Below, in pieces: positions 5,313 through 60,100 of a stretch of 64,000 bases of DNA. The DNA is from Candidatus Omnitrophota bacterium (GTDB taxonomy: Bacteria; Omnitrophota; Omnitrophia; Omnitrophales; Aquincolibacteriaceae). Within the stretch, counting starts at the first letter, position 1. The number at the start of each line of letters is the position of its first letter. The translations under genes and the position numbers were made by a program. The DNA lies in assembly GCA_035352955.1 (NCBI GenBank), contig DAOPYQ010000002.1, positions 233,267 through 297,266 of the forward strand. Reading direction: 5' to 3'. The notes below the pieces were generated by a model that had not been told where the DNA came from, ran no database searches, and worked only from the letters and a program-made list of their open reading frames with translations.

Positions 5313-5318
5313 TTTTTA

Positions 5319-6644: not shown

Positions 6645-6699
6645 AGGGGTGGAATCCTAACATAAGGGTTAAGGTTTGACAATAACATCGGAAAAACAG

Positions 6700-6765
6700 G
6701 CTAACGGATGGTGGAATGGGGATGACGAAAAACCAGTTTTTACGCCATCCGCCCTCCGAAATTCT
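6700..6765. repeat. REP-like intergenic palindrome of the same family
   Basis: taacggatggtggaatggggatgacg…ttacgccatccgccctccg lies between the DUF1015 gene and csaA. Confidence 0.55.
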
Positions 6766-6776
6766 TCATCCCCCCG

Positions 6777-7097
6777 TTACTTTACCTTCGCTCCGTCGGC
6801 GATCGGGCGATCCGTCGTCACAACGGTCAGCATGGTTTCATTAGATGCGGCCAAAAGCATCCCCTGGGACTCGACGCCACGGATCACCGCCGGATCAAGG
6901 TTGTCGACGATTACGATCTTTTTTCCCTTCAGCTGATCTTCGGTATAATGCGCCCGAATGCCGGCGACGATCTGCTTACGAACCTCGCCTACCTTGATTC
7001 CAAGGACATACAACCGATCCGCATTCGGATGCGGCGCAACAGTCTCGATTTCGGCAATTTTAAGTTCTAATTTCTGAAAATCTTCATAAGAAGCCAC
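6777..7097 (-). CDS. csaA: tRNA-binding protein (CsaA / Trbp111 / EMAP-like OB-fold)
   Basis: 106 aa containing LKIAEIETVAPHPNADRLYVLGIKVG...GVESQGMLLAA, a canonical tRNA_bind domain. Confidence 0.75.
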   Translation of the reverse strand: MASYEDFQKLELKIAEIETVAPHPNADRLYVLGIKVGEVRKQIVAGIRAHYTEDQLKGKKIVIVDNLDPAVIRGVESQGMLLAASNETMLTVVTTDRPIADGAKVK

Positions 7098-7402
7098 GTT
7101 TTTCTCCTTTTTCGATTTTATCGGACGTTCAGTTTTAATTTAAAACTTTCCCAGAGAAGATTATTACCGATAGATTGACATTCTAAATCTCGCTAAGTGC
7201 CACGAGGGCGGTATTTTAGCATAAAATTTTCTCCGGAAAAGAACTTTAAAAATGGATTATCGGACGTATGAACCGTAAGCATTTACAGTTAAAACGCTTA
7301 GAAACGCCTTGTTTTGCTTGATTTCAAGAGGCTGAGTGCTTATCATAGGCGCCTACTTAGAAAATCCCATCGCATTCATTCAAATCCAACAGGGAGGAAT
7401 CA

Positions 7403-36538: not shown

Positions 36539-37039
36539 TTAGTATCCCGCCCGATTCAACGCGATATTCACGAGCCTGTCCACGTGCTTAATCTTCGGAT
36601 GTTCGCGCGGCACGTGAAAATAACTGACTCGCTGAAATTTTTTCTCAAGCGCTTTGACTTCCATAAAGAACGGCCGAAGATGTTCGGCCTTGAGCTTATA
36701 GATGCCGGAAAGTTGCCGGGCCACGAGTTCGCTATCGAGGAAATAATCCGCTTCTTCGATCCCGAGTTCGGCGGCAAGTGTCAGTCCGCGGATCACGGCC
36801 GTATATTCCGCGATATTGTTGGTCGCGTCTCCGATGGTTTCGCCGTGATCGGTGAGTTTTTGGTCCTGGGCATCGCAAACGAGAACGCCGATCGCCGCGG
36901 GGCCGGGGTTGCCGCGCGCGCCGCCGTCGGAATAAATCTTTCCCTTCTTAGCGGATAACGGATGGTGGATGGTGGATGGTGTTTGGGCTTTTTCGCCCTC
37001 CGCCTTCCGCCCTCCTTCATCCCGTTTCAGAGGTACCAT
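36539..37039 (-). CDS. rnhA: Ribonuclease HI (true start probably downstream of the annotated ATG)
   Basis: RNase H core IYSDGGARGNPGPAAIG...TNNIAEYTAVIRGL...D. The ATG-defined N-terminal ~30 codons overlap a REP-like palindromic element (36953..37018). Confidence 0.7.
   Translation of the reverse strand: MVPLKRDEGGRKAEGEKAQTPSTIHHPLSAKKGKIYSDGGARGNPGPAAIGVLVCDAQDQKLTDHGETIGDATNNIAEYTAVIRGLTLAAELGIEEADYFLDSELVARQLSGIYKLKAEHLRPFFMEVKALEKKFQRVSYFHVPREHPKIKHVDRLVNIALNRAGY
36953..37018. repeat. REP-like palindrome of the same family
   Basis: gcggataacggatggtggatggtggatggtg…cgccctccgccttccgccctcc lies between cysE and rnhA. Confidence 0.55.
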
Positions 37040-39178: not shown

Positions 39179-42100
39179 TTATGCCGCCCACGCGACGACC
39201 TGCTGGTTCAGATAATCCTGAAGGACCGCGCGAAGCTCCGCGTGAACGATCAGATCGCCATCCGGCGATTCCGTCACGCCCCGTTCTTTCCCTTCGGAAA
39301 GCACGTACAGAAGCGCGAGCGAGATCAGGCCCTGCTCCTCATCCAGCCTGAGCGCTTTAACGAGAGGATGCCGTTTACGCCGCGCATTCTTTCCGTAAAG
39401 ATCGACGGCGGCACGATTCGGGAGACCAAATTTCGCGAACGCCTGTTCCATCCCGAGTTCCGTGACCGCGATCTTCCCGCCCTCGATCTGCCGGAGGATC
39501 GTTTCGCGTGCCAAAAGCGGCTCTTGCTCTTGCCGCGCAACCTTCGTCATCCTGAGCGCAGGCTTCGTCATCCTGAGCGCAGCGAAGGATCCCGTCTGAG
39601 ATTCTTCCCCCGCCGATGGCGGGGTCAGAATGACGGCCTTATTAGTTGGTGCTTCCCCGTAAAGAACGATCCGGGCGTCTTTGCGGCCTTCGGCAACCGC
39701 CGTCGCAACAATAAAGAATTCTTCCCACTGTTTTGCCGTGAGCGCGGCAAGTTCCGCACGGCTCATCAGGATCGTCCCAGCGCCGTTCAATGTTTCGATC
39801 CGGCTGCGGACCGCGAGCGCGTGACGCACAGCGCTTCGCGCTGAGGATGACGGATGACGGAGGGCGGTCCCAATACCTATCAATTTTTGCGAAGCGGAAG
39901 TTGGGGCGGATGGAGCTTTGGCTTTTACGTCCTCCGTCCTCCGTTTCCCTTCCTCCTGCTTTTCGGGTGTTGCACGGAGGGCGGGTGAAGCAGAAGCTGA
40001 GGGGTCAGAAAACTGCTTCGTGCCCGCCTCTCCGCGCGGTTGAATGGTTGTATTAATTATAATTTTTTCTCGCTTGGGTTCTTCGCCAGAGGCGAATCCG
40101 TCCACTTGCTGGTGGATTCGACTCGGGACGAATCCGCCGCGCTGCGTGGCGGAGAGTCTCGACGGGGCCGATACACGCCTCGGGTTTACGGCCGTAAACC
40201 CGAGGGCTGCTTCATTGACACCCCTAAAAGGCTGTGATAGGCTTTGGGTGGTTTCGCGGGAAAGAAGCTGTAAAGAAGATAAGCTACGGGTTGTTAAACC
40301 GCTCGGTTGAGAGATCAGCCGGGCGGTTTTTTTGTTGTCCTGCCTGCCCACCAAAACTTCAGCGCGGATTTCAGAGCGGGGCCCCGAAAAAACCGACGCC
40401 CACGCGTAAAACCCTCGGACGACGGCCCGCTCATAATCCAGGGAGTCTTTTTGGAGACGGGTCAATAGCGACTTGCCGACCTCGCCTCCCGTCGACATAA
40501 ATTCACCTTTATCGTCATCCGCCCGGCGGCTTTCCTGTGCTTCGTTTTCAAGAAGCTTGAGCCATCTCCGAAGCGGTTCAGTTTCTTGACCGGAAAATGG
40601 GGTCACCGGCTCACCGTGAACGGCTGCCCGGAAACGAACTCCCGCTTGCGCGATAAAAGACAGAACTTCCTCGGCAGCTTCCGAAGCCTGCGCCTGTTCT
40701 TTCTCGGGATAAATTCCCAGAAACTTGCGCCGCTGCGACAGCGCCTCTTCAAGGGCTTGCCGCATCGTGAAATATCGTGCCGCCATCTCCGCCTGCCTTT
40801 CGCCAAGCGTTCCCTGCCACGGGTTAAGAGCCTGAAGCGCTTTCCCGACAAGGCTCTGCGGCACGGCATCCCAGGCCCCTTTCTTCCGGATCTCAAGCGC
40901 AAGATTCTCCACATCGGCCCGAATACTCATGAATTCTTTCAATAATGTCCCCTCCGAAGACACATTGCCGGTAAGTGCTTCCTGAGAATAGATCTTTGTC
41001 AGCAGCCGGTCGGAAACGGTTTCACCTGCGGGATCCACAAGGAAGGGACGCAGGGTCGGAGTCGGCTCAAAGTGCGCGAAACCATACCCCAGCTCCCAAT
41101 CAGAAAATTCTATCCCTTGGGCAGCTATATCCCATTGGGCGCTCCTGAACTTCCATGTTGCCACACCCATCCAGGTATTCTGCAAAGCAACAAGAGCTGC
41201 CAGCGCCTTGAGCGCCGCAGCTTGATGAGGGCTCACTTCTTCGAGCGTTTCCACAAACACATCTTTTAACGAGTGGACGATATCGTCGACATCGGCGTAG
41301 ACCTTGCGCAGCCTCTCGATCAGGGATTTATTATGAAGTCCTTTATCCGCAAAATCACGCCGCAACGCCGTCTGGAAGCTCTGAAAGGATTTAAGAGCCA
41401 CCGCAAGTTCTCCGTGAGCCTTTATCTTGTTCTGGGTTTTCAAAAATTCTCCGGCGCGGATCAGATGGTTCACTCCATCGCCCAATGAAATCCTTTCGGC
41501 AGAGATTGTTTCCGCCATGCCCGCAAACGCCGGCTGGTTCATTTCCGTGAGCGTGTTCCTTACGCGCGCAACGATCGCCGCGATCTCAGGAATCGCCGCC
41601 CGCATCTCGGCGCGGCCGCCCACCTTTGCGGCCGGCCGAGAAATGCTTGAATACGGATTCAAGCGCGCTTCGGAGCGTTTGGCGGATTGGGAAGAAAGCT
41701 TCGCCTGGACGGCTTTGGCCACGGCCGCGACTGTTTTCCAGTCGCTTCGCGAAAGCTGTGCGGCGCGCAGACCCACGCCCATCATCCCGAAACTCGCTAA
41801 AGCACGTGACGCCGCGACCCAATTTTCATGCTCCAAAGCCTCAAGCACGCGGCGGAAATACGGCCGCAGCTTCATCGGAACTTGGATACTCCGGAAGAGT
41901 TCCGTGATCCGGCGGTGGTTCCGAACTGCTACGGAACTTTTTCCGGAGGCTCTCCTCAGGACCAATCCATCGTCCGTTAGCCGATAGATCCTCTGACTGA
42001 GGCTCCTCGCGGGCGTCCGGCGAGATCCCGTCAATCTTGTGATCTCGACCACGTCTTGATAAAGATTGATCCGGACATTCACTCCGTATTGCTCAAACAA

Positions 42101-45100
42101 AAACCTTTCAAAATTATTCAAAGAATCCGTGAGGGCGCGCCCGTGCTCCTGATCGTAATCGATCAACATATCCGGTATTTTCGGAGCAAACTCCGCCAGA
42201 AGAAAATGAGAAGCAAAATCCATACCGAAGATCTCGTATTTCACGAATTGTTGGAGCGCAAGCTTAAGTGTAGATATGTCGACCAGCAACCGGCCCCCCG
42301 GCTTGAGGGCCTTGACCCATTTGGAAAAAAATCTTGGAGCTTCTTTTTCGTCATTAAAGGCATAACTCAGGGACTTCGTTCCTATCATCAGGTCAAGCTG
42401 TCCTTCCCCATAATCAAGCGTGCTGAAGTCCGCCAGCAACGGATAGGCCGCCACATTCCCCGGAAGGACCGCGCGATATTTAACCCCACCTGAAGATCCT
42501 TGGAACGAACTGTCTTTCTGAAAGAATTGTTCAAAGATCAGCTTGAGCGGCTGGGAAACATGATATTCGCCCCAGTTTCTATCGGTCATATAATTACGCG
42601 CTTGGGAAGGATTCGCGCTGATCCCCCTCAGGACCTCTATCTCCGGCCGCTGATTCGAGACCACTGAGAGCTCGATCGGGCGCTTACCATATCTCCCGGC
42701 AAGCACGCCGGCAACTTCCAGAAATTGGGGCGACTCTAGGGAGCCTGCTTCATCATGTAATCCAGGTCCCATTAAAGCCACTTTTAGAGGGCCGCGTTTA
42801 GCAGTATCAAGAGGGCGCAGCAAAAGATCGTATAACCCCGGAAATCGCTGTGCCTCAGTAAAGTCACCGTATCCGGACCGTCCGTAGAATTTCGCCAGCT
42901 GCGGATTGATCGTCCGCAGATAATCCGCGTAGGGGCCCGCCGCTTGAGCTGCCTTATCCGCAGGCTCCCGAATCTCGGCTCGGACTTCCTTGGTCCGGGC
43001 ACGAGTGCGTGCAGGACTAGGGGTGTCCTGCCGCATCTCAGCACGGCCGCCCACCTTTGCGGCCGGCCGAGGAGTGCTTGAATGCAGATTCAAGCGCACC
43101 TCGGCTGGGACTTCCTTGGTCCCAGCACGAGTGCGTGCGGGACTAGGGATGTCCTGCCGAATCTCGGATCGAAGGGCGGCGATCGTTCTGACGGCTGAAT
43201 CCAGTTTGTCATAGAACTCAAGGGAGTCGGCTTCGCGGGTGATCACGAGCGGCTTGCTCAAACCGGGATGGCCGAGGATCAGCTCTCCTCTGTCCGCTGT
43301 CACGGAAGCCCCGTACATCTTGTTCAAAACCTCGTTCAGGATCTCCCGGATCCCGGCGGCGGTCCTGTCGGAAGGATTGCCGTGAAGCTGGATCGGCGCT
43401 ATCCAGAGGATCATTTTCAAAAGCTCCCGGTCGTATTGACCCGGTGTGGCATGTTCTTTTTGCCGGACCAATACATCGAATTCTTTCAAGGATTCCCGGA
43501 GCGCGGGATAAAAATACCGGTTCAGCGCCTCTCTCGCATTTTGAGATCTTCCGAACCGAACTCCGCTCAAATGCATCGCGATCCGCTCGGTCCCTCTTTC
43601 CAAAAAGATCTTCGGCTTTACATCGACCTCGTGGTCCCCATAACCGGATGCGAAAAGGATCGCGTGCTCCGTTGATTTGCGGAGACACTGGGCCGCTTTT
43701 TTCGCAAAATTGACGGCATCCTCCCCGTATTCCCCGTAGCTTTGAACGTCCAGCTCGGCTCTTAAAAGTTCGGTCCGGGCTTGATCGGCTTCTTTTTCCG
43801 CCTGATCGAGCGCGCGCCGGAAAACAACCTCCTTACGGGCGGCTTCCAGAACGGCGTCCCGATGGCTTTCAAAATACCCTTTCAAGTCCAGCATCAGATC
43901 GAGGACCAGATCTCCGTACGTGGATAAAACCTGTTCTTTAAGAGCAGCCTCTTTCGCTTTATAGATCGTTCTTTGTCCGGAACCCTGAAAAACCATCATG
44001 AAATCCGCCGCCAGCGCTGCGGCGGCGATCCTTTCCCGGATCTCTCCGGAAAAATACTTTTCAAGCGCCGGCCAGGCGACCGCAAGGTCCGGGTCTGTCT
44101 GCAGAAGTTTCGCGGTTTCATCGACCATCTCTTCATCCACCCACTTCAGCAGAACCGGCGCATCCAGACCGGCCACTTCCATTTCACGTCCTCTTGCCGC
44201 GAAACTTTTGGGGAACATTTTTTTAGCCCGGGCGATCCGTCTTCGATCTCTTTTCCATTCTTCGTTCGCGTCCCGGATCTTTTCAGGAAGGGATTGAACC
44301 GCTTTTTTGAGCTGTTTGATCAGGTCTTGGGGCACGTATTCCTTCGAGGACTTCAAGCCCCCTCTCGCTACCGAAAAAGACGCCAAAATGAACTGGTACG
44401 CGACCTTGAGCATGGGAACGGTTTCTCTCAACGCGTCCGGACCCGTCACATCCAGATCGTATTTCTGCTCTTTCATGGCCTGATAAAAAATATCGAGCTC
44501 AGCTTCGTCCCACGGCATGCCGCGTAAAAAGAAATCCATGAGCAGTTCTTTATCCGTCCCCATCTCCGTCCCCGCAGGCTCTGTTTTAGCAAGGGACAGG
44601 AATGTATCGCCGCCGGATGAGCGCAAAGTCGCGCGAGCAGGCGAGTTCACGTCCGCCTCGCTGATCGCGAGAGCCAGGGCCTCCGCGATCCATCGGCGGG
44701 TCCTGTCAGTGGAGCGGGCTTCCCGCCTGTCCGCCGGCAAGGGGCTGTTACCCGAGATAGAGTCGGGCTTCATCTCGGGTCCGGCATCCTCCTTTTGGAA
44801 GGTGAAACTCAGGGAGGCGGGATCGAACCTCATGTGCTTGAGGAAAGCGAAAACAACGGCCGGGTCGTAAAAAACGCCCGCGAGATTCGCGATCTCCGTC
44901 AGGGCTTCCGACGGTTTGAAGATATGATTGTAGGGCCGCTGAAAGGTCATCGCGTCGAACGAGTCAGCGACCGCCGTGATCTTCGCGATAAGCGGGATCT
45001 GATGGCCCGCGAGCCCTTTGGGGTAGCCCTGCCCGTTGTATTTTTCATGATGCGCGACGACATTCGCCGCGACCTCACGGAGATATTCGAACTTCTCCAT

Positions 45101-48100
45101 CAGCGGTCTCAGCACGTTAAACCCCTCTGCCGCGTGGCTCATCATCACGGGCCACTCCGCGGGATCGAGCCGCCCCGGCTTCTTCAGGATCGCGTCGGGC
45201 ACCGTGAGTTTGCCGATATCGTGGAACGCGAAGCTGTCGACCAGCGTCCGGGTGACATCAAGTCCCATAACCCCGGCCGTGGCAACGCCAAGCTCCGTCA
45301 CGCGCGCCATGTGATCGAGCGTGACTTCGTCTTTTTCCGCCATCTGTTCGAGCAGTGCGAGAAGCTCGCTCCCGACCGGCCCGTATTTCAGGACCCTCCC
45401 GATCGCCTCCTCCCCCGCCCGAAGTTCGCTCCGGTCCGCGGGAGTTCCCCAGGAGGAGCGGGAAACCTTCAGGGATATCTCGAGGGAAACTGCATAACTG
45501 CCTTGTTTTAAGATTGAAGCAGAGCTCTGAAGTCCGGCAATTTCATTCGTTCTTTTAATTCGATAGACACTTTCCGGGAATTGGTCTTTCAAAACCACTG
45601 CCCACTCGTTCCGTCCTCCAAACTCCGCTGTAAAATCATCCGTATCATCAGGAGCAATAACCAACCGCCCCTTTGGCTTCAATAAACGGAAAATGCTGGC
45701 CGCCTTCCTCTTCCCAGAATCAAAAAGATACGTTTCATCCGGATAAGGCGCCAAACAATAGACCCCCGCCACGAAAGCCGCTCCCTTTTGCGCGGCAAAA
45801 GCTTCGGAGTCCTTACCGAGGATGATCCGGACATTCCTCAAACCTTCCTGCCGGATCAATAAAACCATTTTGTTGAACAACGCCGGATCGGGTTCGATAA
45901 AAATGAACCGGGCCCCGGGATTCTCACGCACAAGCGAAAGCGAAATCCAGGATTCGCCGGGACCGATATCTACGAACAGGGGCGCCGCGGCATTACCAAA
46001 AACTTCCCGCCAGTCCGCCGTCACAGAAATGATCGGAGAAAAATCGTTTTTCGCGGTTGCTTGGCGGTCGTTTGTTTTTTCATTTTCCGGCGACGCTTTT
46101 TGCGTTTGCCGCGACTCGGAGCGGGCCTCCTGCCTGTCTGCCAACGTGTCCACGGCAGAGCTATCTCTTGTTTGTTTGCGGGCCAGTTCCTCTTCAGCGG
46201 CCCGCCGGACTTCCGTCAAAAGCGCTTCGGTCGAAATGTCTTCGGGCGTGCTTAAGAGGATCGCGGGAGCAACGCGGGCCAGGAACCGGAGGATGGCGAC
46301 ACTGCCGTAAGAATAGGTCCATTTCTTCTTGAGGTGCGTGATGTCACTAAAGCCTTCCTTGACGAAAACGCTGGTCGAGGCCTGGAAGGTGCTTGGCGTA
46401 TTTCCGTCCTCGCGCGCGGTCCGCACCAAGAGATCGGAAAAAGGAAGCATTCTCTCCAGGGTCAGCTGCGGGTACGGATCAAAGACCTCCTGCATCCCGG
46501 TAGCGTCCGTATCGAGATTGTAGAATAACGCCTGCTTCCTTGGCCTCGTGACGGAGGGATTCCCGAAAAATTTCCCGATCCATCCCCAACTGGTTTGCCC
46601 GTCAATGCCCGGCACGGACGCCGTCCGCCACAGATCAAGGCTTCCCTTGACCCAGAAGTGCCCGGCCAGGAACCCCGTCGCGCGAAAAGCCTGATTAAAA
46701 TTTTTCATGGTGATCCAGAAAAGGGAATCTCCAAGCACCCCGGATATTTTTTCCCAGTCTTTTAACCGCGCCGGATCTCCGACGGGAGGAAATTCACCGG
46801 GCATTTTAAAGAATGGCTTTGCCGGATCCGGGATCGCGCCATCCGGACCCGCCGAAGGGCTTTCGTCATGGTGCTCGTCCATAAAAAGCTGGATATTGCC
46901 GGAAGTCGGCATCTCCCCCCGGGCCGCCGCTTCCATGGCATATTTAGCGGAACTTCCGTGATCCCCCGCAAAATAAAAACTGACCGTCCCGCCGCCGGGT
47001 CTTTTGAAACGGATCACCACGTCCCGCGCGGGGACCACGGGATTTTCCCCCGCCTGGACGATGTCCTGCCAGGTCCCCAGGATCAGGGCCGGAAAATCGT
47101 TGGATTGCCAAACGCCCTTTCCGTCGGCCTGCCGCACAAAATGATAATGTGCCCGGTCGAATTCATCGAGGAAGGGGGGTTGTCCTTCTACCGAAGGTGC
47201 GTGAAGTTTCTCCGCCGGATAATACATCATGCCTTCCGCCAACCGATCGATCCGCATCTCAGCACGGCGGCTTTCATTAGAAGCCGGCTGAGAAGTGCTT
47301 GAATATTGATTCAAGCGCATCTCGGCTGGGGCTTCCTTGGTCCCAGCACGAGTGCGTGCAGGACTATGGATGTCCTGCCGCACCTCGGCGCGGGGAAGGT
47401 TTTGGTCCATGACGGCGATCACGTCTGTCACTATCCGCCGGAATTGCTCGTACGTAGGCGCGGCATTGGCAATACGCTGCCCATCCACCAGCTGTTGACC
47501 ACGGGCAGAGCTGTAAAACGACGCCGCGGTCGCGTCGGACACCGCATGACCCGTGACCCGGTTTGAAACAAGAGTGAGTACATCCTGTAAAACATGGCAT
47601 AACTCATGCCCCGAAGATTTCAGGAATAATCCGGTTAACCAGATACTTCCTCCCACAACGATCGTCGCGCCCGCCGAATACAGGAACAAGCCGGCATCGA
47701 TATGAGATCCTCTGTTCGCCAAGTCGTGAAGAACCATGCTCGCAAAGAGCGCCGGATAAACATGAATCCGGTCAAAGTAGCGGATCACTTTCACAGAGCC
47801 CGCCTCATCGAAATGGGTGGCGGTCTCTCCTCCGTTATATTGGAATATAAGCTTCCCCAACGAAAACACCAGGCTCCCAAGCCCCCATAGCGTGTGGAGA
47901 TAACGTTTGTGTTTGAGATCTTTAAAAATTTCCAACGGAGTGCGATAAAAGAACCGGTAAAGTTCATTGAATATGACTGCCGTCCAACTCCCCGGGGCTC
48001 GGACCACGGGAACGCCGTACCGGGCTGCCAGGATTTTGACAAAACGCTCGTAATCGGCCGCGTCCCTGAGCTGGCCGGGAACGGAGAACATCGTTGATTC

Positions 48101-51100
48101 CATCCAGGCCGAAGCCAAAACATCGTTCAATAACCGCTTTAAGGGCGGCCGTAATCGCTCATCCGCCGCAACGGCCGCGGTGGAACTGTCATCGATTTTC
48201 CGTGCCGTCCCGGTCCGTAATTCGTTTCGTCCGAATTTTTCGAGCCGCTCCCCGGTGAATTTCTCGAGATCCGCAAAACCTTCCCCCATCCTCCGGACAG
48301 CCTCCGAAAAAACCTCCCGGTTCCACGCCCGGTCCTGACTTTCAATGAAGACCTCGTAAGGGAAATAGAACATCTGCTCCATCTTTGTCATCGGATGTTC
48401 TTCGGAATTATTTTCCACCAGACGCCCGGCATCCCGGTATTTTGCGTAGCGCGGGCCCGCAAAGTCCTCCCGGATCGCCTTGACCAATTCCTGATACTGG
48501 GCCAGCACCGCCCCGACCCGGTCAAGATCGCCGCGGATATCTTTCGAAAGGTCCCGGGCCAAAAGACCTTTCTTTAAAAGAACATACATTTCGAGTTTGA
48601 GGGCGGCCAGCGAGTTCCTGATGTTATGGTCAAACCATTCTCCCCAGGTCACCCGGTCGCCGTCATAACCCTCCCCGAAGACCGAAAAACCGTTCTCAAG
48701 TTCTGTCACGATCCCGATCAGGTCCTCTAGATACTGGACCTTCTGGCGGAGTCTATAGATGTCCGTTCCCTTTTCCTCGCCCGCCGCGGCCTTGCCTCCG
48801 AAAGAATCCGCCCTTATCGGAGCCTCCGGATCGGGCCATGCGATCTCCCGGGGAACCTGGATCACGGAAGGAATCGTTCCATAAGACGCCACCGTCTTCG
48901 CGCCGAACAAAAGATCCTCATATCCGGGAACGATCCGGTCGTCGAACGCTTTTTCCGCCGAAGTATAAAAAAGCGACGCGCGGTCAAGGCGAACCTTCTG
49001 CGGCTCATGCGCCTCGCGGTTCGTGCGGCTTACGGCATCCGCGAGAATGGCCGCTTCTTCGGGGGAAAGCGGCGCCACCACATGCATCGCCGTAACGTGA
49101 TAACGGGTCCGCGGCCTGAAATTCGAAAGACCTTTGTGCCTTTCGAGAAGTCCTTCCACCATCGCGTCCATCGCGGCAAGATCCGAGTCCCGCGCCGGGT
49201 CGAACTCAAAAACAAGAAGCCGGCCTCCCTTGAAAAAAGCAAGCTTTCCGAGGTAACCTTCGGCCGACTTCATGGTCTCAGCCGCTTCGCGAAAAACCGA
49301 CGGGTCCTTTTCCAGTTCCGGGTTCCGGTCTGCGGGTCCCGCAACCAACGTGATGTGCCGGACCTCCGAAGGAACCAGCCTTACCTTGGCCGCGAGCTTG
49401 GGATCCGCGCGGTCGAGCTTGCGAAAAAGTTTCAAAAGCATTCCGTCCATATACGCGTTCGCTTCGGGATCGTTCCCGAGCCTGTGGGCAAACACAACAT
49501 GACGCGCCGGCTCGATCGGCTCTCCCTTGACACCCTCCGCCTTCATCGCGGCAATATCGTCCTCTTCGAGCCTCGCGAACTGTTTGCGGTATTCCTGAAC
49601 TCGCTGAACGGTACCGGGCACCTTGTGGACACTAAAGTGCTGCTTCGCCGCAGGTTGATCCGCCCGCATCTCAGCACGGCGGCCCCCCTCTGCCGCCGGC
49701 TGAGAAGTCCTCGGATATCGATCCGAAGGATCCTCGGCCCTCGGGATTCCCACAACGATGCGGTACAACTGCTCATTGTGCCGGTACAGTCCCGCGACCC
49801 GGCCAAGCGATTCCAGCGACCATCCTCGCTTTCGGGCCAGGGCCGTCAAGGAAGCAATCTCGTAATCGGTATACTTGGGAGATTCATCGCCGAGCATCAA
49901 CAGGGTCCCGGGATGCGAGCGCTTCAGAACATTCCCGACTAGCTCATCGATCTCTGGCTTGGAGGACAGGTAACGCGCCTGTTCCGGATGCTGCATGATC
50001 GAGGGCAATACATTGAGCATGATGACCAGATCAAAATTCTCACCAGCGGGGATCCCCCCGAAATCGGTCTTCCTCCCGCGGTCCATCGCGTCAAGCCGGT
50101 CCTTCAGGACCGAAGCCCAGGCCGACACTTTCGGCACTTTGAACTGCCGGTCAAGAGCCTCCCGGAGCGCCGCCACCCGCTCAACGTATTTCTCGTCGTG
50201 CACATCGCTGGGCTGCAGCAGGGTCACATCCACCCCGGCAGTTTCTAAGGCAAAACTGATATCAAAGAAATCGGACGGTCCCACCTCGAGGACTTTCTGC
50301 CCTGCCTTGATCCTGCCGCTCGCGAAAAGTTCCTGCGCAAACCGGACGGCACCTTCCTGAACCCGCCGCGCTTCCTCTTGCTCGAAGGAATACCAGCGCA
50401 CCACCCAGCTCAGAACATCCAGCACACCGGTCCGGTCAAACGCTGTCAGAAGGTCCCGGACAGGAATGCTCTTTCCCTGAGCCTTCGCGGGCGCCGTTGC
50501 TTTCACGGATGTTTTCCCCGCCCGTGATTCGGCGCGGACGTCCGGCGCAAGCCGGACCTTGAAGATCTTCACCGTCTGCGTGCCGGCGGGACGGCCGAAC
50601 GCGCTGACCGAAATGACCTCCTGGCGGATCTTTCTGACCGAAAGACCCTTTTCCTGTTTGAAGAGAGGCTCCAGGGTATTTCCAATTCCCATGACGTAGT
50701 AGGCGCCGCCGGGTTTGAGACGAACGGACAATTCGGACAGGGTTTTGGAAAACGTCCTGCCTCCGGGGTCTTCCGTCCTGAGATCCGCTTCGTTTCGGTC
50801 TTCGGAAGGAGCCGGGGCGTTATCAATAATGGCATCGTAGGTATCGCGGACATTCTCAAACCCGTCGCTTTCCCAGACCCGCACACGGTCCTGAAGGTTG
50901 TGCGCGTACACATTGGCCAGGCTGTTTTGAACTTCCAGCTTACCAATGTCCACGCCGTCGAGCTCGATACCCGGTACCGTTTTCCCGAGAACCACAAGCT
51001 CCGGACCTGCCCCCGACCCCTTAACCAGGATCTTTTGACCCGGACGGATCTCCGGAAGGACCGCGGCGAGCAGGACGGCAACATAGGGATTTTCGGGAGA

Positions 51101-54100
51101 ATACACATTGGCAAAAACGAGGAACCGGTAGTCGTTTAATGTCTGCTCCCGGAATTGAATGCGGTGGGCACTCGAAACATTGATCCGCTCGCCGGTCTTC
51201 TTTCCCGGAAAAACCACGGGCGAAAGCAGGTCCCGGCGGTCCCGCCAGAAGGAGAGCCACTCTTCTCCCGGATCAAATATGGATTTTCGCCCCTCAAAAA
51301 CCGTAGGGTCCAATTCCATCAAGCTGAGGTTCCCGCGTCTTGTTTTCTCAACCGCCAGGCCAAGAGGGTCGCCCTTATACGCAAGGAGCCAGGAACGGAA
51401 AACTTCGCCGTCTGAAAACCAATCGGCAAACCGGATCACCCGGTCAAGCGATGCGGACGGCTCGATCGGAAAAACGCTATAGCCCTCGCCAAGCGAAAGA
51501 CCGGCGGGTCCCTCGGGAGATATCCCGAGCGCCTTCAGGTAAAAATAAAGCGGCGAATTTTCCGAGACTTTCAAACCCTCCGCCCGCTTCCCTTCCCTCG
51601 GCGCCGCCCGCATCTCCGCGCGAAGATCGTCCTTTTTGCTCCCGGAATCAGCGTCTGCGGCTGAGCCCCTTCCCGAGATAAGATTTTCCCTCATGTACCA
51701 AGCCCCGTAGAGCTTCATATTTTCGGAAGGCGCCGGCACGGAAAACGCAACGGGCTTTTCCAGTGACCGGAGTGCGGCGGCAATAGCCTCGCGGGTTTCC
51801 CGATTGAAGTCCCCCGTTTTCGCGCGCAGATCCGCAAGAGCAGCCCGGATCCTTTCCGAACAACTCCGGTAAACGGAAGAGTTTCCGAGCGCGCGTCCCG
51901 CCTCAACCGCGATCCTCGATGCGCTGATGAAAACCGAGATCTTCACATAAATGTTCTCGCTCTCCTCTCCGAATCCGGTCAGCCCTTGCAGAAGATCTTC
52001 CAAAGCTGAGGGAGAAAGGACGGGCGCTACGCGCTCCATCCCCGCAAGGGCTTTCTTTCTCAGATCGCTTTCGCCGATCCCCTTGAAATTGGAAATAACC
52101 ATCCACTGGGCCGTAAAAAACATGGCCCCAAAAACCGCTAACCCGGCCAAAACCATGCCGTTTTCGGCAAACCATGCGTTCATCGGAGATTTTGCGGCAA
52201 ATTCGGGACGAAGCGCGAAAAGAACTCCGACCATCATCGCCGCTTGAGCTACCGCAATGCTTTGAACGAGCCCGACGAGCGCGATCCTTTTCAGGATCTT
52301 TATCAGCCGGCGGTCTCGCCATGTCTCGGCGGTTCCTTTACTGCCATCCTTGAGCACTTTCAACCAGTAGACCGCCTCGACCGAAGCGATCCATTCCGTT
52401 CTCACCTGCTGCATCAGCTGTGAAGATCCGGCCGGTGCGGCGTCCTCAATCAACGCATCGAGGACCCTTCCGAGATTTTCTTCATAAATAATGGTGAGCC
52501 CTTTAGGAAAGAGACGGGCGAGACGCGAATCGCTCGGCAATCGGGAGAGATCAGCTCCCGCGGCCAACATCTCCCGGAGCGCAAAAAGCCGGGCGATCAC
52601 TTCAAGCTCCAGAGAAGTCGCCGGACGTTTAATGTCTTTTCGTAGGATCGCAAGCTGTTCGCGTGTCCGGGACGCCCATTCTTCATCTACATTCGTGCCC
52701 CGTTCCACGATCCGGACCGCCCCAGAACCTTGGGACAGCTTCGCGCCTGCACCCACGGGAGCGGCGTCAGAAACGGTAACAGAAGGCTCGTGAAGAGCCT
52801 TTTGCGGAACGGTTTTCTCCAAACCCTCGACCGCCAGAGAAATTTCCTTCCCCAACGCGAAGCCAACGATCCCGAGTCGGGACCGGGTCTCGAGAAGCCC
52901 TCTCCGGAGCATCCGGACTTTCTCTTCGCTCACATGGATGACCGGAAGCTCCCCGGGATCTTTGGAGACCGAAACGGCGAGCCGGGAAGCACTTAAAAAT
53001 GCCTGCATTTTCAGGGAGAGATCTTTCTGGTCCTCCGCGAACCGGATCAGACGGTCCGTCATATCCGCGCGAACTTCGGACGCCAGATCCGGCGCGATCT
53101 TCGCAAGCTCCACAAGTGCGTTTTTTCTCAAAACGGCTTCCGCGATCCCGCCGGTGCAAGCGAGGATCAGGAAATTTAAACCGGAGAAAAGCCCCACGAA
53201 TCCGGACACCGCGGTAAAAAGAACCCGGCTCTCCGCGAACCCTCCCTGCGCCGCGGAATTCGCGCCGCCGAAGTAAAAAGACCCCAAAGCCCCGGCCAAA
53301 ACCGCCGCAGCCTGAACGATCCCGGCGATCGAAAGTCTCCGCAAAAGTTTTTCGGTGCGCCGCTGTTTTTCCGTCCGGGCAAAGCCTTTTCTGCCGTCCA
53401 CCAGGACCTTGAACCAGTAGCCGGCTTTCACCGTAGCGCTCAAGGCCGCTTTTTGATCCGGCGAAAGCCCGGCATCCCCGGCCCTTTCGACTTCCCCGAT
53501 CAACGCTTCCAGGATCCTTTCCAGATTCCCGGAATAAATAAGCAGGAGCCCTTTCGGGAAAAGGCGGCCAAGCCGAGAATCAGCCGGAAGTCCGGAAAGA
53601 TCCGCGCCCTCGGCCATCATGTCGCGAAGCGCGAAAAGCCGGGAGAGAACTTCAAACTCTCGCGGGAGCGCGGAACGCCTGATGTCTTTTTGAAGCGTCA
53701 CATACTGTTCGCGTGTCCGGGCCTCCCATTCTTCATCCGCGGTCCAGACACGAGTGCGTGCAGGGCTAAGGATGTCCTGCCGCAATTCAGCCCGGACAGA
53801 TCTGGGTTCCTTTTCATATCCCCTTGCGGCCTCGCGGGCGGTCGAAAGAACGGCAATGCTGCCAAGATCGAGAGCTTCGTTCATGGGCCGGATCTTTGAC
53901 CGGTCTTCCCCAGAGAAGGTGCTGCTCACCCCTCCCACGTACGTCGCGAACTTCGGGGAAGAACCCGTTGCTCCGGTGGAAGGATACATTTTTTCCAAAG
54001 TCCTGAGCATCAGCCGCGCGGCCAGGATAAGACGATCGCGAAGTTCCTCCTTGGAGGAACCTTTTTCGAAAGAAGCCGCGAGGGTGTGTTCCCCCGAGAG

Positions 54101-57100
54101 ATCGCCCTGGGGTTCGAAATCAAAGATCATATGAACCGCCTGCTTGGGATCATGCCCTCTAAAGCCGAGGTCTTGATGCCGGTAGGTCCGTTTGAGACCG
54201 TGGTGAGGCGTTACGACGATCGTGATCTCATGCTCAAGAAAATAGAGGCTTGCGAAAACGTTCACGTCCTTCTGCCCGCTGTGTTGAAAGGCCCGCATGG
54301 CTGCGACCTCGCCGGAAAGACGCTGCGCAAAAGTTTCCAGAGACGCTTCATTCCACTCGCCGGAGCGGAGCGTCAAGGCTTTCCGGTCCCCTTGCTCATC
54401 GAGAAATTCTTCCGCGATCTTTCCCTGCGATATTTCCGTAGCGGTTTCCGTCTGCGGGGCAAGCGCCTTGGGGGCGACAGCCGGGGTCTTTTTTTCCGGA
54501 AAATATTTCTCGAGGAAAAGGGCTATCCGACGGAACAGCCCCGGAGCTTTGGCTAAAAAAACTTCTTTGGGGCCGGGGAGAGCCTGCTCCGCGTTTCTCG
54601 ATAGGATCGCGCTAATTGAACTAATATCCGCTTCGACCCTGTTCGTCCGGGAGCGCGTCATGAGCCACGGACCTTCCTGGATCTCACGGAGTATGTTGTC
54701 AACTTTCGCCTGAAGGACTACGGCGTCGGCTTCGAGCGACGCGTCAGGCTCGCAGAACGTCCCCTGCGGGGTTTCCGTCGCAAGTTCGAGCGCACGAAGA
54801 TAAAGGTTGGTCGCGCGGAAAAGCGCGGGGTCTTCCGACTTGAGGAGTTGTCTCTGCGCCAATAAATTCCGCGCCATTGATTCCGCAAAACGTTCCCGGT
54901 TCGCCCCCAGGATCACCGTATTGACGATAAGATCCGCGGTCAATGTTCCGACCGCATACTGCTGGTTCGCATTAAGCCGTCCGTCCGGATCCAGATCGTA
55001 AATGGGCCCGTGAATGCCAAGCTCCCTCAACAGCCGTTCCCCGGCCTGCCGAACGAGCGCGTGGTCGAACGAATAAGAAAGGCCGAGCTGGAGCGCGTTC
55101 CGCGGGATAAGGATTATTTCCCCCATCATCGAGACCGCGACGTCATTCGCCAAAGCAAAAGAGAGGTTTTCCAGGGGAGAAATCGCTTTTGCTTCCTGGC
55201 GTTCGTAATGGGCCCAATAATCATTCCGGAACTTCGCGAAATCTTCTCCGGTCTCGAGGATCCGGACCCGGGGCGTCACGTCCAGATGCGGGAAGATCTT
55301 TTGCGCCTCCTCCATCGTTCGCGCCACCCAGGCTTCCGAAAGAACGTCCCCCTCCGCCCCATGTTGGCGCATCTCGGCTGGGACTTCCTTGGTCCCAGCA
55401 CGAGTGAGTGCAGGACTATGGAGGTCCTGCCGCAGCTCGGCACGTACGGGAAGCAAAGAACGGGTTTCCGCGCCGGCCTGGCCGACAGGCTGGCCGTCCC
55501 CTTTCTTTTTGAGTGTGACGACTTTTTTCCGGAGCTCGAGGGGGGAGGTGTAAAGCGGAACGGTCCCGTCCAGTTTTCCGGAGGCTTCCCCGGCGGCTTT
55601 TTGAACGATCTCCGAAGGATCTTTTTGCCCCCCGGCAAGAGTTGTCAGAATATTTTTCCAGGCCTCTTCTTGCCCGGTGCCAAGACGCCCGGCGATCTCC
55701 CCGATCGCAAAAAAGGCCGCCCTCCGGATAGCGTAATGATCATGCCTTGCGGCTTTCATTAATACAGGGAGCGATTTTGTGTCGCCGGCCCGGCCCAAGG
55801 CCTCGGCGGCTTCCTTACGGGCCGGAAGGAAATCATCTTTCCGGACCGTTTCGCGGAGCGCGGCAAGTACAACCTCCCGCATTTCCGCTCCCAGATGCCC
55901 GGTGCGCAGGAACGCGCCCAACGCGATCGCCGCCGCCGGCCTCAAAGCCATATCTTCCACATCATTCTTTTTCAGTAGATCGATCAGAAACGGGATCAGC
56001 TCGACTTGCTCTTTTGTGCCGGCGCCAAGGATGGCGAGGATCTTGCCGGTATTCATGATCGGAATAACCTTGAGCCTGGCCCTTGCCTCAAGCCATCGGG
56101 TCACGAGACGATAGGCGGCATAGGCAGCCAGCGCAGCGCCGGCGACGTAGTAGAGGTCGCTCCCCGTCCATTCGCCGCGGATCAATCGGTCGCCCAGGAA
56201 CGCGACGCCCGGGACCGCATCCGCCCGCAGCTCGGCTGGGACTTCCTTGGTCCCAGCACGAGTGAGTGCAGGACTATGGATGTCCCGCCGCAGCTCGGCG
56301 CGCATCGGCTTCCGGTCAAATTTCCGGCGCAGCACGGTAACATTGTCGGGCGCGGTCTTGCCTCCCGCGTACTCGACATATTGTTCCGCTGAAGTTCCGT
56401 ACGAAACAAACCCCCGGATCCGCTCATCGCGAAACTCCCGGGACTTCCCCGCGTGGAATCCATAGATCCCGTCCGAAGCCAGAAGGACCTCGACCGCGCT
56501 TGCGTCGCTCAGGTCGATCGTCTGGATATCGACTACCGGGATCAGGATCTTCCGGAAAGCCCGGTCCCCGAAAGAACGGCCCGTGATATGGGATTTCCCG
56601 GTCACGGGATCCGTCAAATACCACCCGCCGTTTTTTTGTTCCGCAAACGTATAATCGCGTCCTTCCAGGAGCCCGGCTTTTGCGGCCACCCCCCGGTAAG
56701 CATCCCGCTGTTTCGGGTCCGAAAAATGCTGTTCCTCGACCGGAACTTCCTTTCCGTCCTTGAGAAGATATGCCGGAGAATCTCCGATCAGCATAAGGTG
56801 CAGCGTCTTCCGGTCCGACGGCACGAATACGCAGGTGAGGGTCGAGCCCGACTTGAATCCTTTCATCATGGAATAAAGGATTTTGAACGTCCTCTCAAAC
56901 GCCGCGCGGATATCGCCTCGATTCAGGAGAAGCGCCCACTTGAAGACGGGCGTCAAAAGAACGCTCAGAAATCTCGAAACGGCCTTTCCGCCGTGCCCGT
57001 CCATGACCGCCATCATCTGCCCTTCAACCTTCATCCATCCCGGGACCCATACTCTGAGTTTTCGATCCACAAAACTGTCTTCCTGGGGCAGCGCAAGTTC

Positions 57101-60100
57101 CGGGTGTCCGATCTCGCTGCCGCGGGCCTGCGCGATCTCCGTTCTTTCCGGATCCTTGAAAGAGATCCGCTCCCAGGCGCGAGAAGAAACACTGGCAAGG
57201 CTGCGAAGGACGGCCCCGAGGACCTTAAGGGCGGTGCCGCCGGCGATGCTGATCATCAACCCGAGGGACCATTCCCTGACTTCCCGGGCGTTAAGGAACA
57301 TCGCCCACTTGAATTCCTGCGGAGAAAGAACGCCTTTCCCGAAACCGCGATCCAACATGAACAGGGAACAGCCTCCCGGTTTTCGCATATCAAAGACGGC
57401 GGCGTAATCGGGGTAGAGCTTCAGTTCGTCGGCGGGGAGCGGCCTCGGCCCGACAAGAGACATTTCTCCCTTAAGGATGTTGAGGATCTGCGGGAGTTCG
57501 TCGAGAGCGGTCCGGCGAAGGAACGCGCCGATCGGGGTCGGGATCCGGTCGCCTCCTTCCGGCATGGTCCGGAACTTGTACATCCAGAAAAGTTTCTGCC
57601 GGTAACCCGGCCGTTCCTGCCTGAAAAAGACCGGCGCCCCGATCCACGGCGCAAAGAGCAGTGTCGCCGCCGCCAGGAGCGGCAGCAAGGCCACCGCCGC
57701 CGCGACATCGATCACCCGGATCCACGGCGCCCATTTCGCGTACGGCGTCTTCCGGAATTCTTTCGGCGTAATAATATTCCGGTCGCGCCCCCCGAAAGAA
57801 ACCGCTTTACCACCCCCCTCGGAGACCCGGTCTCCGAGCTGCGGCGACTGATCGCGAAGCTCGGCGCGGCCGCGAGCTTTCGATGGAGCGGACGAATTAA
57901 GATCCAGAGCGGCCAATTCTTCCAGCGAGGAAGCTTTTAGTTCCGGAAAAAGCTTCGCTTCCGTAAAAGCGAGGATCCTGCCGGAGCGCCCCCGGACCTG
58001 CTGATCGATCGCTTTTGAGATCAGCTGCGCCGCGCGGATCACTCCCTGCCGCTGCCTTTTCAAGATAGCTTTGGCGCCCGCGCGCAGAAGACCTTCCTCG
58101 CTCTCCCCGAAGAAATCTTGCATGGCTTCCGTATAACCGGACAAATTCTGCTGAGGCCAGAGATGAACGCCCGATAAAATCCCTTTCTGATCGTAAATAA
58201 GCGTGACTCTGATCCAGTCGGAAGCGTAGAGACTGCGCGACACGTCGTACTTTGTTCCCCGGATCGCCTGGAGATGGGAAGTGGCCTTTTCTTCGAATCC
58301 CAGAAGCACCTGCTGCCTCTTTTCGGAGATCGCCAAGGCGCCCAACCGTTGCCCCGGTCCGGCTTTCGCGGGGATCATTTGAGAAAGGATCCGGACAGTG
58401 ATGTCGTCGTTTAATCCGTAGGGGCCCAGTTCCGCCTCTCGCTGGCGGACCAAGCTTTCCTCCGGCTCGTCTCCCGCAAGATCCGTCCGCAGCTCGGCTG
58501 GGACTTCCTTGGTCCCAGCACGAATGCGTGCAGGACTATGGATGTCCTGCCGCCGCTCAGCGCGAGGCTGGCCTTCGGAGGATCTCTTCTGCTGCAAGTC
58601 GGCACGGGATAACCACCCCCACCGGATCAGGAGATCGACGGCTTCTTTTTGAAAATTTCCCGCCGCGGATCCTTTCGCCTTCAACTCGGATGCGATCCTC
58701 TCGATCACCTGCCATTCATCCCTGTGTTCCAGAGCGGCTCTTTCAAAGACGGCTTCGAGCATTCTTCCGCGAATTGAAAGATCTTCTTCCTGAGAAGCGG
58801 TGAACGCCAGGATCTCCTCAAGGAGCGAACGGGCCACAAGCTTTTTTTCTTCGGCTTCCGTCAGCGGGACCTTGTGCAAATACCGCTCCTGAAGCTGGCC
58901 AAAATAACCCGTCAAACCCGAGCCTGTTCCCGGAAGGCCGGAGGCCATCAAGGGGCCTCCCCTCATGCCGTCTTGCAGGAGCTTTGCGTTCATCGCGTGC
59001 GCTGCTCCGACGTTGTAGACGACATTCGCCCGGGGATAGCGGCGCAAGAGTTCGAGTTTTTGCTCGCGAATGAGTTCATCTCGCCGGAGAGTTAATTCCG
59101 CCATCAGTTGCCCGATCTCGCGATAGGTTTTGAACAATTCACCGGTTTCATTTTGATAAAAGAACTGCCCGAGGGAGCCCCCGAGCGCCCTGGCCCGGAA
59201 ATAAAGGTCCCGCCAGACCTCATAGCTCACTTGCATCGGGAATCTTACACGCACGCCGGCGCCGGCCATCCAAAAATCCCGTCGCTTGACGAAACCGTCT
59301 GCCGGTACTTTCGCCCACCGATCACGGGTCTTTTCAAGCCGCCTCGAAACCGTAAGGTCATCCTGTTCGATATATCTCACGGCCCTTTCGCGGGTGACCT
59401 TTTCATAAACCGCTCGGAGCTCCCGGTCATGTTCCGCGAGGATCGCCGGCCACGGAAGTTCACGGATCCCCGCCGGCAGGCGCGCCAGCATATGCTGCGG
59501 AGACATGATCTCTTCAGGGATCACGATCAGTTCCGGATACCCATGGCGGGCAGGATTTTTGTAGGACCTTGCGACAAGCCTCTCCAGCTCCGGACGGATC
59601 TGCTCAAAATCTGCCGTGGTCAGATGCGACGAATACAGGTCGAAGGCGTGCCCTTCGATCACCGCGTCCCGGGAACTTTGCACCCGGAAGACCCGGAAGA
59701 CGCTCAGACCCATGCCGGCCGCCACCGCGAGAGTTCCGCCCATGAAAAAATTCCGCCTTGAAAAACCCCTGCCCTTCGCCGGTAAGGAAGGTTTTTCCGG
59801 TTGCCGCAGAAGCTGAACGCCTTCCGCTGCCCGCTTCCCTTCAACCACGATTGCCTTCGCCCGTATCTCCGAGCGCTTTTCACCCATCCCAGAACCAGGT
59901 TCCCAATCTCCGTCTTCAGGGGCCTCACCTACAGCATCTTGAGCGGGCCGCTGCATCCATTTCCAAAGAACTGACGGACGGATCCCCAACCCCAACCGGA
60001 GCATGGCCCCGACAACCGCTCCGAATTCGAAACCCAGAACCCATGTGGATGCAAAAACCGTAGCGATCGAACCCGCGAGGATCATCCATATTTCCCAATC

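Follow-up and report, generated by a model that had tools for sequence, protein, structure and literature searches.

What kind of chemistry is carried by the C-terminal half of a bacterial protein of 10,513 amino acids (aa)? The protein is encoded on the minus strand of a 64,000-nt stretch of DNA from a Candidatus Omnitrophota bacterium (GCA_035352955.1, contig DAOPYQ010000002.1, positions 233,267–297,266 of the forward strand), which is called the window here. A first-pass annotation made from the DNA letters had placed an HD-GYP domain of the cyclic di-GMP (c-di-GMP) phosphodiesterase type, several S-adenosylmethionine (SAM) methyltransferase folds, a candidate 2H phosphoesterase and an HELCH motif in this half, and had taken them to suggest nucleotide, RNA or second-messenger chemistry rather than an adhesin or toxin role. 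All peptide strings quoted in it were recovered from one minus-strand frame, where it had placed them. We found that the HD-GYP domain is canonical but that its context, a cassette without a sensor, is unusual; it sits within a mosaic multi-enzyme protein whose visible part comprises approximately 15–20 modules set off by a short motif, R[AS]ExR.

The visible part of the giant gene occupies 39179–64000 (−), comprising the C-terminal 8,273 codons and the stop codon, and leaves the window at its right end. The listed open reading frame (ORF; 39179–63793, −; 8,204 aa) begins at a GTG codon at 63793. This start was rejected: the 24.8-kb open frame has no in-frame stop between 63794 and 64000 and runs on to the window edge, and the exact product was absent from the protein collection. 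Annotation of GCA_035403665.1 (contig DAONFQ010000006.1) gives the same gene a length of 10,513 aa; this assembly was found via the neighbouring YchF gene, and its contig is identical to the window over 21,095 nt. The window also agrees letter for letter with a separate contig from a JGI metagenome along 6.4 kb, a stretch that takes in the last 1,144 codons of the giant. Residues are given in window numbering (aa i), which corresponds to true residue i + 2309.

HD-GYP domain of the giant protein

The HD-GYP domain lies at 44819–45406 (−; aa 6130–6325, true residues 8439–8634), in a module at 43169–45433 (−; aa 6121–6875) bounded by RSELR (aa 6121) and RSEIR (aa 6875). Its identity, proposed by the first-pass annotation for approximately 44860–45380, is beyond reasonable doubt. 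In aa 6159–6313, the Pfam families HD_5 (3.6e-24, 85.8 bits against a cut-off of 27.2) and HD (6e-14, 52.8 bits against 22) were both matched. An HD-GYP response-regulator family (NosR-family) of NCBIfam was matched with 5.5e-26. Among solved structures, a 200-aa segment matched the sequences of V-cGAP3 (5z7c, 1.5e-32), PmGH (4mcw, 2.5e-26) and PA4781 (4r8z, 2.1e-24). A search of 5.8 billion proteins with an 801-aa query (aa 5900–6700) yielded 233 HD-GYP proteins at E ≤ 1e-5, and all 233 cover the HD-GYP part of the query alone. The domain is 29–32% identical to HD-GYP domains of solved structure and at most 49% identical to metagenomic members of the family.

The conservation check named in the first-pass annotation came out in favour of the domain, with all seven metal ligands (H6161, H6191, D6192, H6220, H6248, H6249, and D6277) and the GYP loop (aa 6256–6258) present. 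Two alignments were used, one of the window protein with 14 homologues (15 sequences) and one with 79 homologues (80 sequences). Every position that never varies in the smaller alignment and is invariant or ≥90% conserved in the larger one (H, HD, GK, KPG, H, HHE, GxGYP, D, R, and Y) is kept in the giant, including H6249–E6250, G6254, G6256–Y6257–P6258, R6286, and Y6288. The column of H6248 holds His in 57 of 80 sequences. The loop itself reads HHEKYNGQGYP from aa 6248 (codons 45020–45052); in the corresponding HHExxDGxGYP columns, the two Gly and the Tyr are invariant (80/80) and Pro is found in 77/80, while the Asn that replaces the consensus Asp also occurs in 14/80 homologues. The Glu four residues before the first His, a ligand of the third metal in PmGH (E185), is Val in the giant and Glu in 8/80 homologues. 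Since this third-metal ligand is replaced, the metal site is probably binuclear, like that of PA4781, rather than of the trinuclear PmGH type. With ligands and GYP loop complete, the domain reads as catalytically intact.

An AlphaFold2 (AF2) model built with the 80-sequence alignment had a mean predicted local distance difference test score (pLDDT) of 93.2 and a predicted template modelling (TM) score of 0.88. When the model was compared with the PDB by Foldseek, HD-GYP structures took all of the first 13 ranks. They include 4r8z (PA4781), 4mcw (PmGH), 9rbz (DvhD, c-di-GMP-bound), 3tmc (Bd1817), and 5z7c (V-cGAP3), these five with probability 1.00 and TM 0.54–0.70; the TM to both 4r8z and 4mcw is approximately 0.7. 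The next match after these was PgpH, an HD-type cyclic di-AMP phosphodiesterase. The giant's domain thus shares with HD-GYP phosphodiesterases (HD_5/PF13487; 4R8Z, 4MCW, 9RBZ, and RpfG-type) the all-helical fold, the H..HD..H..HH..D ligands, the HHExx(D/N)GxGYP loop and the KPG and RPY motifs. Unlike such enzymes generally, it has no REC, GAF, PAS or HAMP input domain attached, and it is an internal module at residue ~8,450 of 10,513, between R[AS]ExR linkers. No Pfam family was matched in the approximately 540 aa downstream of it (aa 6330–6880).

Candidate enzyme modules of the C-terminal half

The C-terminal ~4,300 residues hold, in order, the methyltransferase candidates MT1 and MT2, the 2H candidate, the HExxH module, MT3, the HD-GYP domain, and MT4. 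The proposal of several SAM-methyltransferase folds was borne out for MT1 and MT3, which pass Pfam cut-offs and could be assigned to subfamilies, whereas MT2 matched no family and MT4 stayed below threshold, so that neither was assigned.

MT1 (50627–51121, −; aa 4225–4389) is of the MTS (PF05175) type, to which the RsmC and PrmC enzymes belong (3.1e-8, 33.9 bits against a cut-off of 23). It gave weak NCBIfam matches to PrmB/RsmC-type enzymes and a PDB match to 2jjq, an RNA methyltransferase of P. abyssi (1.3e-4). Motifs I–IV stand in canonical order, with KGSGAGPE as motif I (in ILVKGSGAGPE, aa 4255), GVDIG in the acidic-loop region, and DNAPA as motif IV (aa 4324). A search of 1.84 billion representative proteins retrieved ~145 homologues of MT1, mostly uncharacterised proteins of 200–400 aa from metagenome-assembled genomes (MAGs) of Acidobacteriota and Deltaproteobacteria, and some within other giants. 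At motif IV the family as a whole has the consensus 'fNaP', which makes DNAPA a trait of the family and not a degenerate NPPY. MTS-type enzymes (RsmC/RsmD/PrmC-like) carry (N/D)PP(Y/F) at this position, whereas MT1 and its homologues have N-A-P; because of this difference, the substrate chemistry of MT1 may differ from theirs.

MT3 (45644–46027, −; aa 5923–6050; DWREVFGN..PLFVDIGPGES) corresponds to the N-terminal, SAM-binding half of a TrmB-like class I methyltransferase. It matched Methyltransf_4 (PF02390) at threshold (1.9e-5, 24.6 bits against a cut-off of 24) and TIGR00091 with 3.5e-5, the latter over the N-terminal third of TrmB alone and with 23 bits against a cut-off of 113. The PDB match to TrmB (1yzh, 6.7e-4) includes the characteristic W..FGN..P..IGxGxG start, and the 'W..FGN..P..(E/D)IGxGxG' beginning is common to TrmB-type enzymes (PF02390) and MT3. 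The motif I of MT3 is DIGPGES (in LFVDIGPGESW, aa 5939) and its acidic β2 region FIEPD. The module also matched the mad2 methyltransferase of PADLOC (6.4e-8) and, in hhalign, the MT1 family profile (81%, P = 1.2e-5). The separate lines of evidence for MT3 are each weak but agree with one another. MT1 and MT3 are credible class I SAM methyltransferase domains whose nearest relatives are RNA-methyltransferase-like, and neither is an equivalog of any named enzyme.

MT2 (49886–50341, −; aa 4485–4636) is a possible degenerate Rossmann or methyltransferase-like module. It has VLEVGPSD in place of GxGxG (VLEVGPSDFF at aa 4501) and matched no Pfam family. Of the 176 matches in the representative library, the best 150 all lie outside it. 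In hhalign, it matched the MT1 family profile (56%, P = 1.1e-4, 127 columns) with VLEVGP-SD aligned to the glycine-rich loop; five control segments gave P = 0.07–0.6. We therefore keep MT2 as a methyltransferase-like, possibly degenerate candidate.

MT4 (42224–42781, −; aa 7005–7190) is a possible class I methyltransferase recognisable in the motif III–V region alone (DLMIG...LKPGGRLLV), where the string DYGEGQLDLMIG quoted by the first-pass annotation lies at aa 7127. Methyltransf_11, 12 and 25 were matched below cut-off (E 0.009–0.03; 17–21 bits against 21.2 for Methyltransf_11), and over the C-terminal half of the models alone. Its hhalign score was 27% over 26 columns. A word-indexed protein search returned no MT4 homologue; this search is blind to giant proteins, missing the giant and its large relatives, which the representative library retrieves, and giving not even a self-match, so that a negative from it does not amount to absence. 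MT4 as a methyltransferase is unproven.

The 2H candidate (48944–49504, −; aa 4764–4950, ~190 aa) carries RHITLV at aa 4812 and YHVTAM at aa 4898, two HxT motifs 86 residues apart. Homologues were found in five proteins, of which the two with a source name are from Omnitrophota, and both HxT/S motifs, RH(I/V/L)(T/S) and (Y/H)H(V/I)TA, are invariant across the 6 sequences. The candidate is like 2H phosphoesterases (LigT/ThpR, PF02834/PF13563) in its two H-x-T/S tetrapeptides and their hydrophobic context. LigT_PEase was matched below threshold (0.005; 17.4–17.8 bits against 23.3), and 3 of the 6 members matched Pfam 2H families alone, weakly (E 0.0015–0.004, 2_5_RNA_ligase2 best with 0.0015) and below the gathering score. 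The profile of the family gave no significant match to PDB sequences or PHROGs, a non-significant hhalign score (P = 0.28) to a LigT/ThpR profile of four solved sequences (the E. coli ThpR sequence being identical to 4qak), and nothing in the word-indexed search. A single-sequence AF2 model of MT2 and the 2H candidate together was discarded as unusable (pLDDT 36). A 2H phosphoesterase at aa 4764–4950 is plausible but not established.

The HELCH motif (47594–47608, −; aa 5396) belongs to a conserved module at 47378–48205 (−; aa 5197–5472, ~275 aa), in which an invariant GHExxHVxQxVL comes after hydrophobic helices and a VDGQ motif lies further downstream. The module shares 37% identity across 280 aa (1e-42) with its counterpart in P0198, an Omnitrophota protein of 4,071 aa, where the motif reads GHEVSHVLQHVL against GHELCHVLQDVL in the window giant. 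The third copy, in an Omnitrophota giant-gene fragment (L005), reads GHESCHVYQRVL, and GHExxH is invariant in all three homologous modules. The helices that precede it reach transmembrane level in two homologues, and a paralogue within the giant (aa 6759–6923) has no HExxH motif. The module matched no Pfam or peptidase family, and its profile gave no match in the PDB. The low-confidence HELCH call was therefore upheld as a conserved motif but acquired no family, and the module could be a novel metallopeptidase-like one.

Motif-bounded cassettes shared among Omnitrophota giants

Self-comparison of the giant protein brought out a strict pentapeptide, R[AS]E[LIVMA]R, in 18 copies within the 8,204 residues of the listed ORF, against 0.23 expected from residue shuffles (maximum 3); the other 25 genes of the window (10,867 aa) contain 0 copies. 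The RSELR at aa 6121 (45419–45433, −) is directly N-terminal of the HD-GYP domain. The other 17 strict copies, all on the minus strand, start at 63017, 61595, 59861, 57854, 56288, 55430, 53780, 51608, 49664, 47378, 47252, 43157, 43031, 42968, 41663, 41600, and 40364, each ending 14 nt further on. A long form of the linker (27–34 aa; RAExRQDIHSPARTRAGTKEVPAExR) is present in seven copies, one of them partial, and a composite form adds LNxxSSTSxPAAKVGG-RAEMR; the pentapeptide often lies within a linker of 27–47 aa. A DNA- or RNA-level element was considered and rejected: the codons of the linker vary synonymously, and the constraint therefore acts on the protein level.

Together with three one-off variants (RAERR, RAESR, and RSESR), the strict copies bracket each candidate domain. 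The modules that they bound are aa 4058–4420 (MT1), 4420–4706 (MT2), 4706–5468 (2H candidate and HExxH), 5891–6121 (MT3), 6121–6875 (HD-GYP), and 6938–7373 (MT4). RSELR is also frequent in other Omnitrophota giants, with 14 copies in P0136, 10 in P0131, 9 in P0198 and 5 in P0188, against at most 0.2 expected in each, and blocks of BLAST homology often end at an R[AS]ExR motif. This module-delimiting motif is the most interesting by-product of the analysis; it may be a processing or docking signal. The motif is not mentioned in the preprints of West-Roberts et al. (10.1101/2023.11.21.568195) and Nielsen & Lui (10.64898/2026.06.07.730766), and a text search of the literature for RSELR returned nothing relevant.

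Modules are shared, in shuffled order and at 28–55% identity, between the window giant and P0131, P0136, P0198, P0124, L004, and L005. P0131 has the sugar transferase module (54% identity) and aa 4984–5199 in common with it, P0198 the HExxH module, P0124 aa 4706–5187, and P0136, a 7,989-aa protein annotated as 'Fic family protein', the PP2C phosphatase module, the MT1 module and the last 230 residues. The last-named stretch (39182–39871, −) aligns with the C-terminus of P0136 at 29% identity (4e-10), which suggests a C-terminal domain conserved in both proteins. A scan of GTDB genomes with a linker profile found four loci in two MAGs. Two of these, L004 (1–5350) and L005 (1–5158) of MAG CAZPCF01, are contigs that consist wholly of one open frame; since these end-to-end frames break inside a linker, we regard them as fragments of one or more giant genes. 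L005 encodes an HD-GYP domain (HD_5 5e-32; 41% identity to that of the window) followed by a linker and the HExxH module. Because L005 carries this arrangement, HD-GYP reads as a recurrent cassette of the giant family and not as a one-off. L004 encodes a PP2C module and a cytidine deaminase domain, the latter with a weak match to MafB19-like toxin deaminases. Genome-contig and metagenome-contig collections that did not include the source genome yielded no relatives of aa 4200–6400.

The window protein is a new example of the published class of Omnitrophota multi-enzyme giants, a membership that the first-pass annotation did not recognise. This class is recently recognised and functionally opaque; most of its sequence lacks annotation, and its members may work as single chains or in pieces. 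West-Roberts et al. (2023; bioRxiv 10.1101/2023.11.21.568195) described Archaeovorin-type giants with glycosyl transferases, methyltransferases, phosphatases, HEAT repeats, GGDEF domains and many transmembrane helices, and with PilZ genes downstream. Nielsen & Lui (2026; bioRxiv 10.64898/2026.06.07.730766) described multi-enzyme giants, with methyltransferases and 'HD-domain regulators' among the contents of their Module 1, and read the giants as transmembrane-anchored with cytoplasmic enzyme content; Burroughs et al. proposed anti-prey effector functions for such proteins. Like them, the window giant is a single ORF of the same phylum, tiled with unrelated and mostly divergent enzyme domains, with a few transmembrane helices and long unannotated stretches. 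It also shares their domain types, namely methyltransferases, a Ser/Thr phosphatase, a sugar-transfer enzyme, HEAT scaffolding and an HD-type domain. At 10,513 aa, it fits the ≥10,000-aa class of the Nielsen & Lui catalogue but is much shorter than the Archaeovorin type, which West-Roberts et al. defined on >30,000 aa (>90 kb cut-off). Glycosyl hydrolase, NUDIX, SecA-like, C39/S8 peptidase and GGDEF domains, which occur in the class, were not found in the visible part of the window giant, and the gene after it encodes YchF instead of the PilZ protein found downstream of other giants.

HD-GYP was not named for Omnitrophota giants in the literature searched. The locus adds to their repertoire what is by sequence an intact c-di-GMP-type phosphodiesterase, a degradative counterpart to the GGDEF and PilZ proteins of other giants, and shows that giants exchange enzyme modules in the form of cassettes with a strict short motif at their borders. 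If R[AS]ExR is a processing or docking signal, it would divide giants into units for structure prediction and proteomics and make the cleavage question testable.

Proposed function and the remainder of the locus

The data show what the domain is, its conserved ligands and fold, the mosaic architecture and the taxonomic class; substrate, topology and physiological role we infer. In the reading that we favour, as probable though not secure, c-di-GMP is hydrolysed locally on a scaffold that is tethered to the membrane and faces the cytoplasm. The giant would be anchored in the cytoplasmic membrane with its SAM- and nucleotide-dependent modules facing the cytoplasm. The C-terminal half is probably cytoplasmic, because the phosphotransferase, SAM and nucleotide modules need cytoplasmic substrates and the strong transmembrane segments are paired. 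A binuclear Fe/Mn-type centre of the HD-GYP domain (ligands H, HD, H, HH, and D) would hydrolyse c-di-GMP to pGpG/GMP, and the second messenger would be lowered locally, beside envelope and polysaccharide enzymes on the same polypeptide. Such a local role would be consistent with the GGDEF domains and PilZ neighbours of other giants.

Several observations weigh against this reading. The best PDB sequence match is an enzyme specific for 3′3′-cyclic GMP-AMP (cGAMP), and c-di-GMP is not the sole candidate substrate. Neither the visible protein nor the sequence directly downstream yielded a GGDEF, EAL or PilZ domain, and the window therefore gives no independent sign of c-di-GMP signalling. The window giant's HD-GYP domain is no closer to that of L005 (41%) than to ordinary bacterial HD-GYP domains (≤49%), a comparison that does not demonstrate conservation within the family. 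Approximately 80% of the C-terminal half has no recognisable domain, and the N-terminal 2,240 residues lie beyond the window. The topology was called from simple hydropathy, and the membrane side after aa ~5400 is uncertain, given the transmembrane-level helices of HExxH modules in homologues.

A rival reading concerns the substrate. Hydrolysis of cGAMP, besides that of c-di-GMP, is documented for HD-GYP enzymes, and enzymes active on either were among both the sequence and structure matches. The domain might act on 3′3′-cGAMP in the manner of V-cGAP3, the Vibrio cholerae 3′3′-cGAMP phosphodiesterase (5Z7C), on another cyclic dinucleotide, or on pGpG. V-cGAP3 has the same catalytic motifs and the top sequence score, and neither a c-di-GMP synthase nor a receptor was seen in the window; however, V-cGAP3 consists of tandem HD-GYP domains against the single one of the giant, and its score is inflated by two matching stretches. 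Its structural match was weaker (E 1.1e-4, TMq 0.54), and substrate specificity is unreadable from sequence. The best structural matches are instead the c-di-GMP enzymes PA4781 and PmGH and the c-di-GMP-bound DvhD, most characterised members of the family act on c-di-GMP, and other Omnitrophota giants come with GGDEF domains and PilZ genes. We consider a substrate other than c-di-GMP rather unlikely on this balance. That the domain is a non-catalytic sensor or scaffold, binding a nucleotide or partners without hydrolysis like the degenerate Bd1817 and PA2572, is highly improbable: it would suit the lack of an adjoining dedicated sensory input domain and the degenerate look of other enzyme-like modules such as the glycine loop of MT2, but the domain keeps all seven metal ligands together with a complete HHE triad and GYP loop, and degenerate family members characteristically lose some of these residues.

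A role in attack is also conceivable, since Omnitrophota have been proposed as predators or parasites whose giants act on prey. The giant would then be an anti-prey or anti-host carrier, its modules freed at R[AS]ExR, possibly by the HExxH module; the HD-GYP and 2H-like modules would degrade cyclic (oligo)nucleotides of the target and the methyltransferases modify its RNA. The toxin-type domains of related giants (the deaminase of L004 with its weak MafB19 match, and the Fic annotation of P0136) fit such a carrier, as do the strict pentapeptide with variable flanks, which stands at the borders of each module and whose protein sequence is preserved in several giants, the invariant GHExxH module within the same proteins, and the cGAMP phosphodiesterase as best sequence match. 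The 8,204 residues of the listed ORF showed no secretion signal and no secretion-system or known toxin-delivery domain, however, and the PADLOC defence-system scan gave the methyltransferase match and nothing else. The HExxH module lacks detectable similarity to any peptidase family, the cleavage is hypothetical, and the 2H identity is unproven. We hold this role to be an unlikely one, although of the alternatives weighed here it is the least so. The first-pass reading of nucleotide, RNA or second-messenger chemistry rather than an adhesin role fits the C-terminal half, whereas its 'rather than toxin' is unsettled in view of the deaminase and Fic domains of related giants and the anti-prey effector roles proposed in the literature. 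A bolder proposal, and one to which we give still less credence than to a different substrate, is that R[AS]E[LIVMA]R and its long form constitute a maturation or cleavage code and the giant is a polyprotein cut into ~15–20 free enzymes, perhaps by the GHExxH module, of which the freed HD-GYP and 2H-like modules would quench cyclic-nucleotide signalling, either the cell's own or that of prey or host. According to West-Roberts et al. (10.1101/2023.11.21.568195), their analysis was blocked for want of information on cleavage points; if true, the polyprotein proposal would supply these points.

Further recognisable domains lie in the preceding part of the visible protein. A polyprenyl-phosphate glycosyl-phosphotransferase (Bac_transf) was identified at 57218–57718 (−; Pfam 6.4e-32, NCBIfam EPS_sugtrans 1.3e-32), with a strongly hydrophobic helix at aa 2030–2048. 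It is followed by a PP2C-type protein phosphatase at 56462–57022 (−; Pfam PP2C 2.8e-7, 30.9 bits against 20.3), with homologous modules in P0136 and L004, and HEAT repeats at 55583–55864 (−; Pfam HEAT_2 8.3e-12). Two transmembrane hairpins are predicted within 52094–53335 (−; aa 3487–3546 and 3830–3900; Kyte–Doolittle peaks 1.7–2.0). They belong to an internal duplication at 51749–53794 (−), in which aa 3334–3662 and 3698–4015 (~330 aa) are 35% identical (2e-41 in self-BLAST) and each copy has a hairpin. Strong hydropathy peaks are found at aa 1229–1261, 2030–2048 (the membrane helix of the transferase), 2177–2195, 3487–3546 and 3830–3900, and none above the same threshold after aa 3900. Pfam searches of six inter-domain stretches of the C-terminal half at E ≤ 1 gave no match.

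An assembly or annotation artefact behind the giant ORF is very unlikely. The gene has no long exact DNA repeats, and an assembly chimera through repeats was rejected, the DNA copies of the linker being only 83–89% identical over 60–137 nt. An antisense ORF at 44795–45511 (+) was rejected as a real gene; the domain evidence is all on the minus strand. The surrounding genes are chromosomal housekeeping genes, encoding aconitase, isocitrate dehydrogenase, citrate synthase, PurH, RsmB, MutY and an M17 peptidase, and the YchF gene lies directly downstream of the giant gene. YchF and a 1,907-aa autotransporter exactly match proteins from MAGs named 'Candidatus Omnitrophota bacterium', which points to an Omnitrophota host. 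The autotransporter (13785–19508, −) has at least 6 PATR passenger repeats and a C-terminal β-barrel (Autotransporter 2.7e-52). Two genes downstream of the giant gene is a small RVT_3/RNase H-like ORF (36539–37039, −), and an AAA_14/DUF4143 ATPase gene is located further along the window (19801–20964, −).

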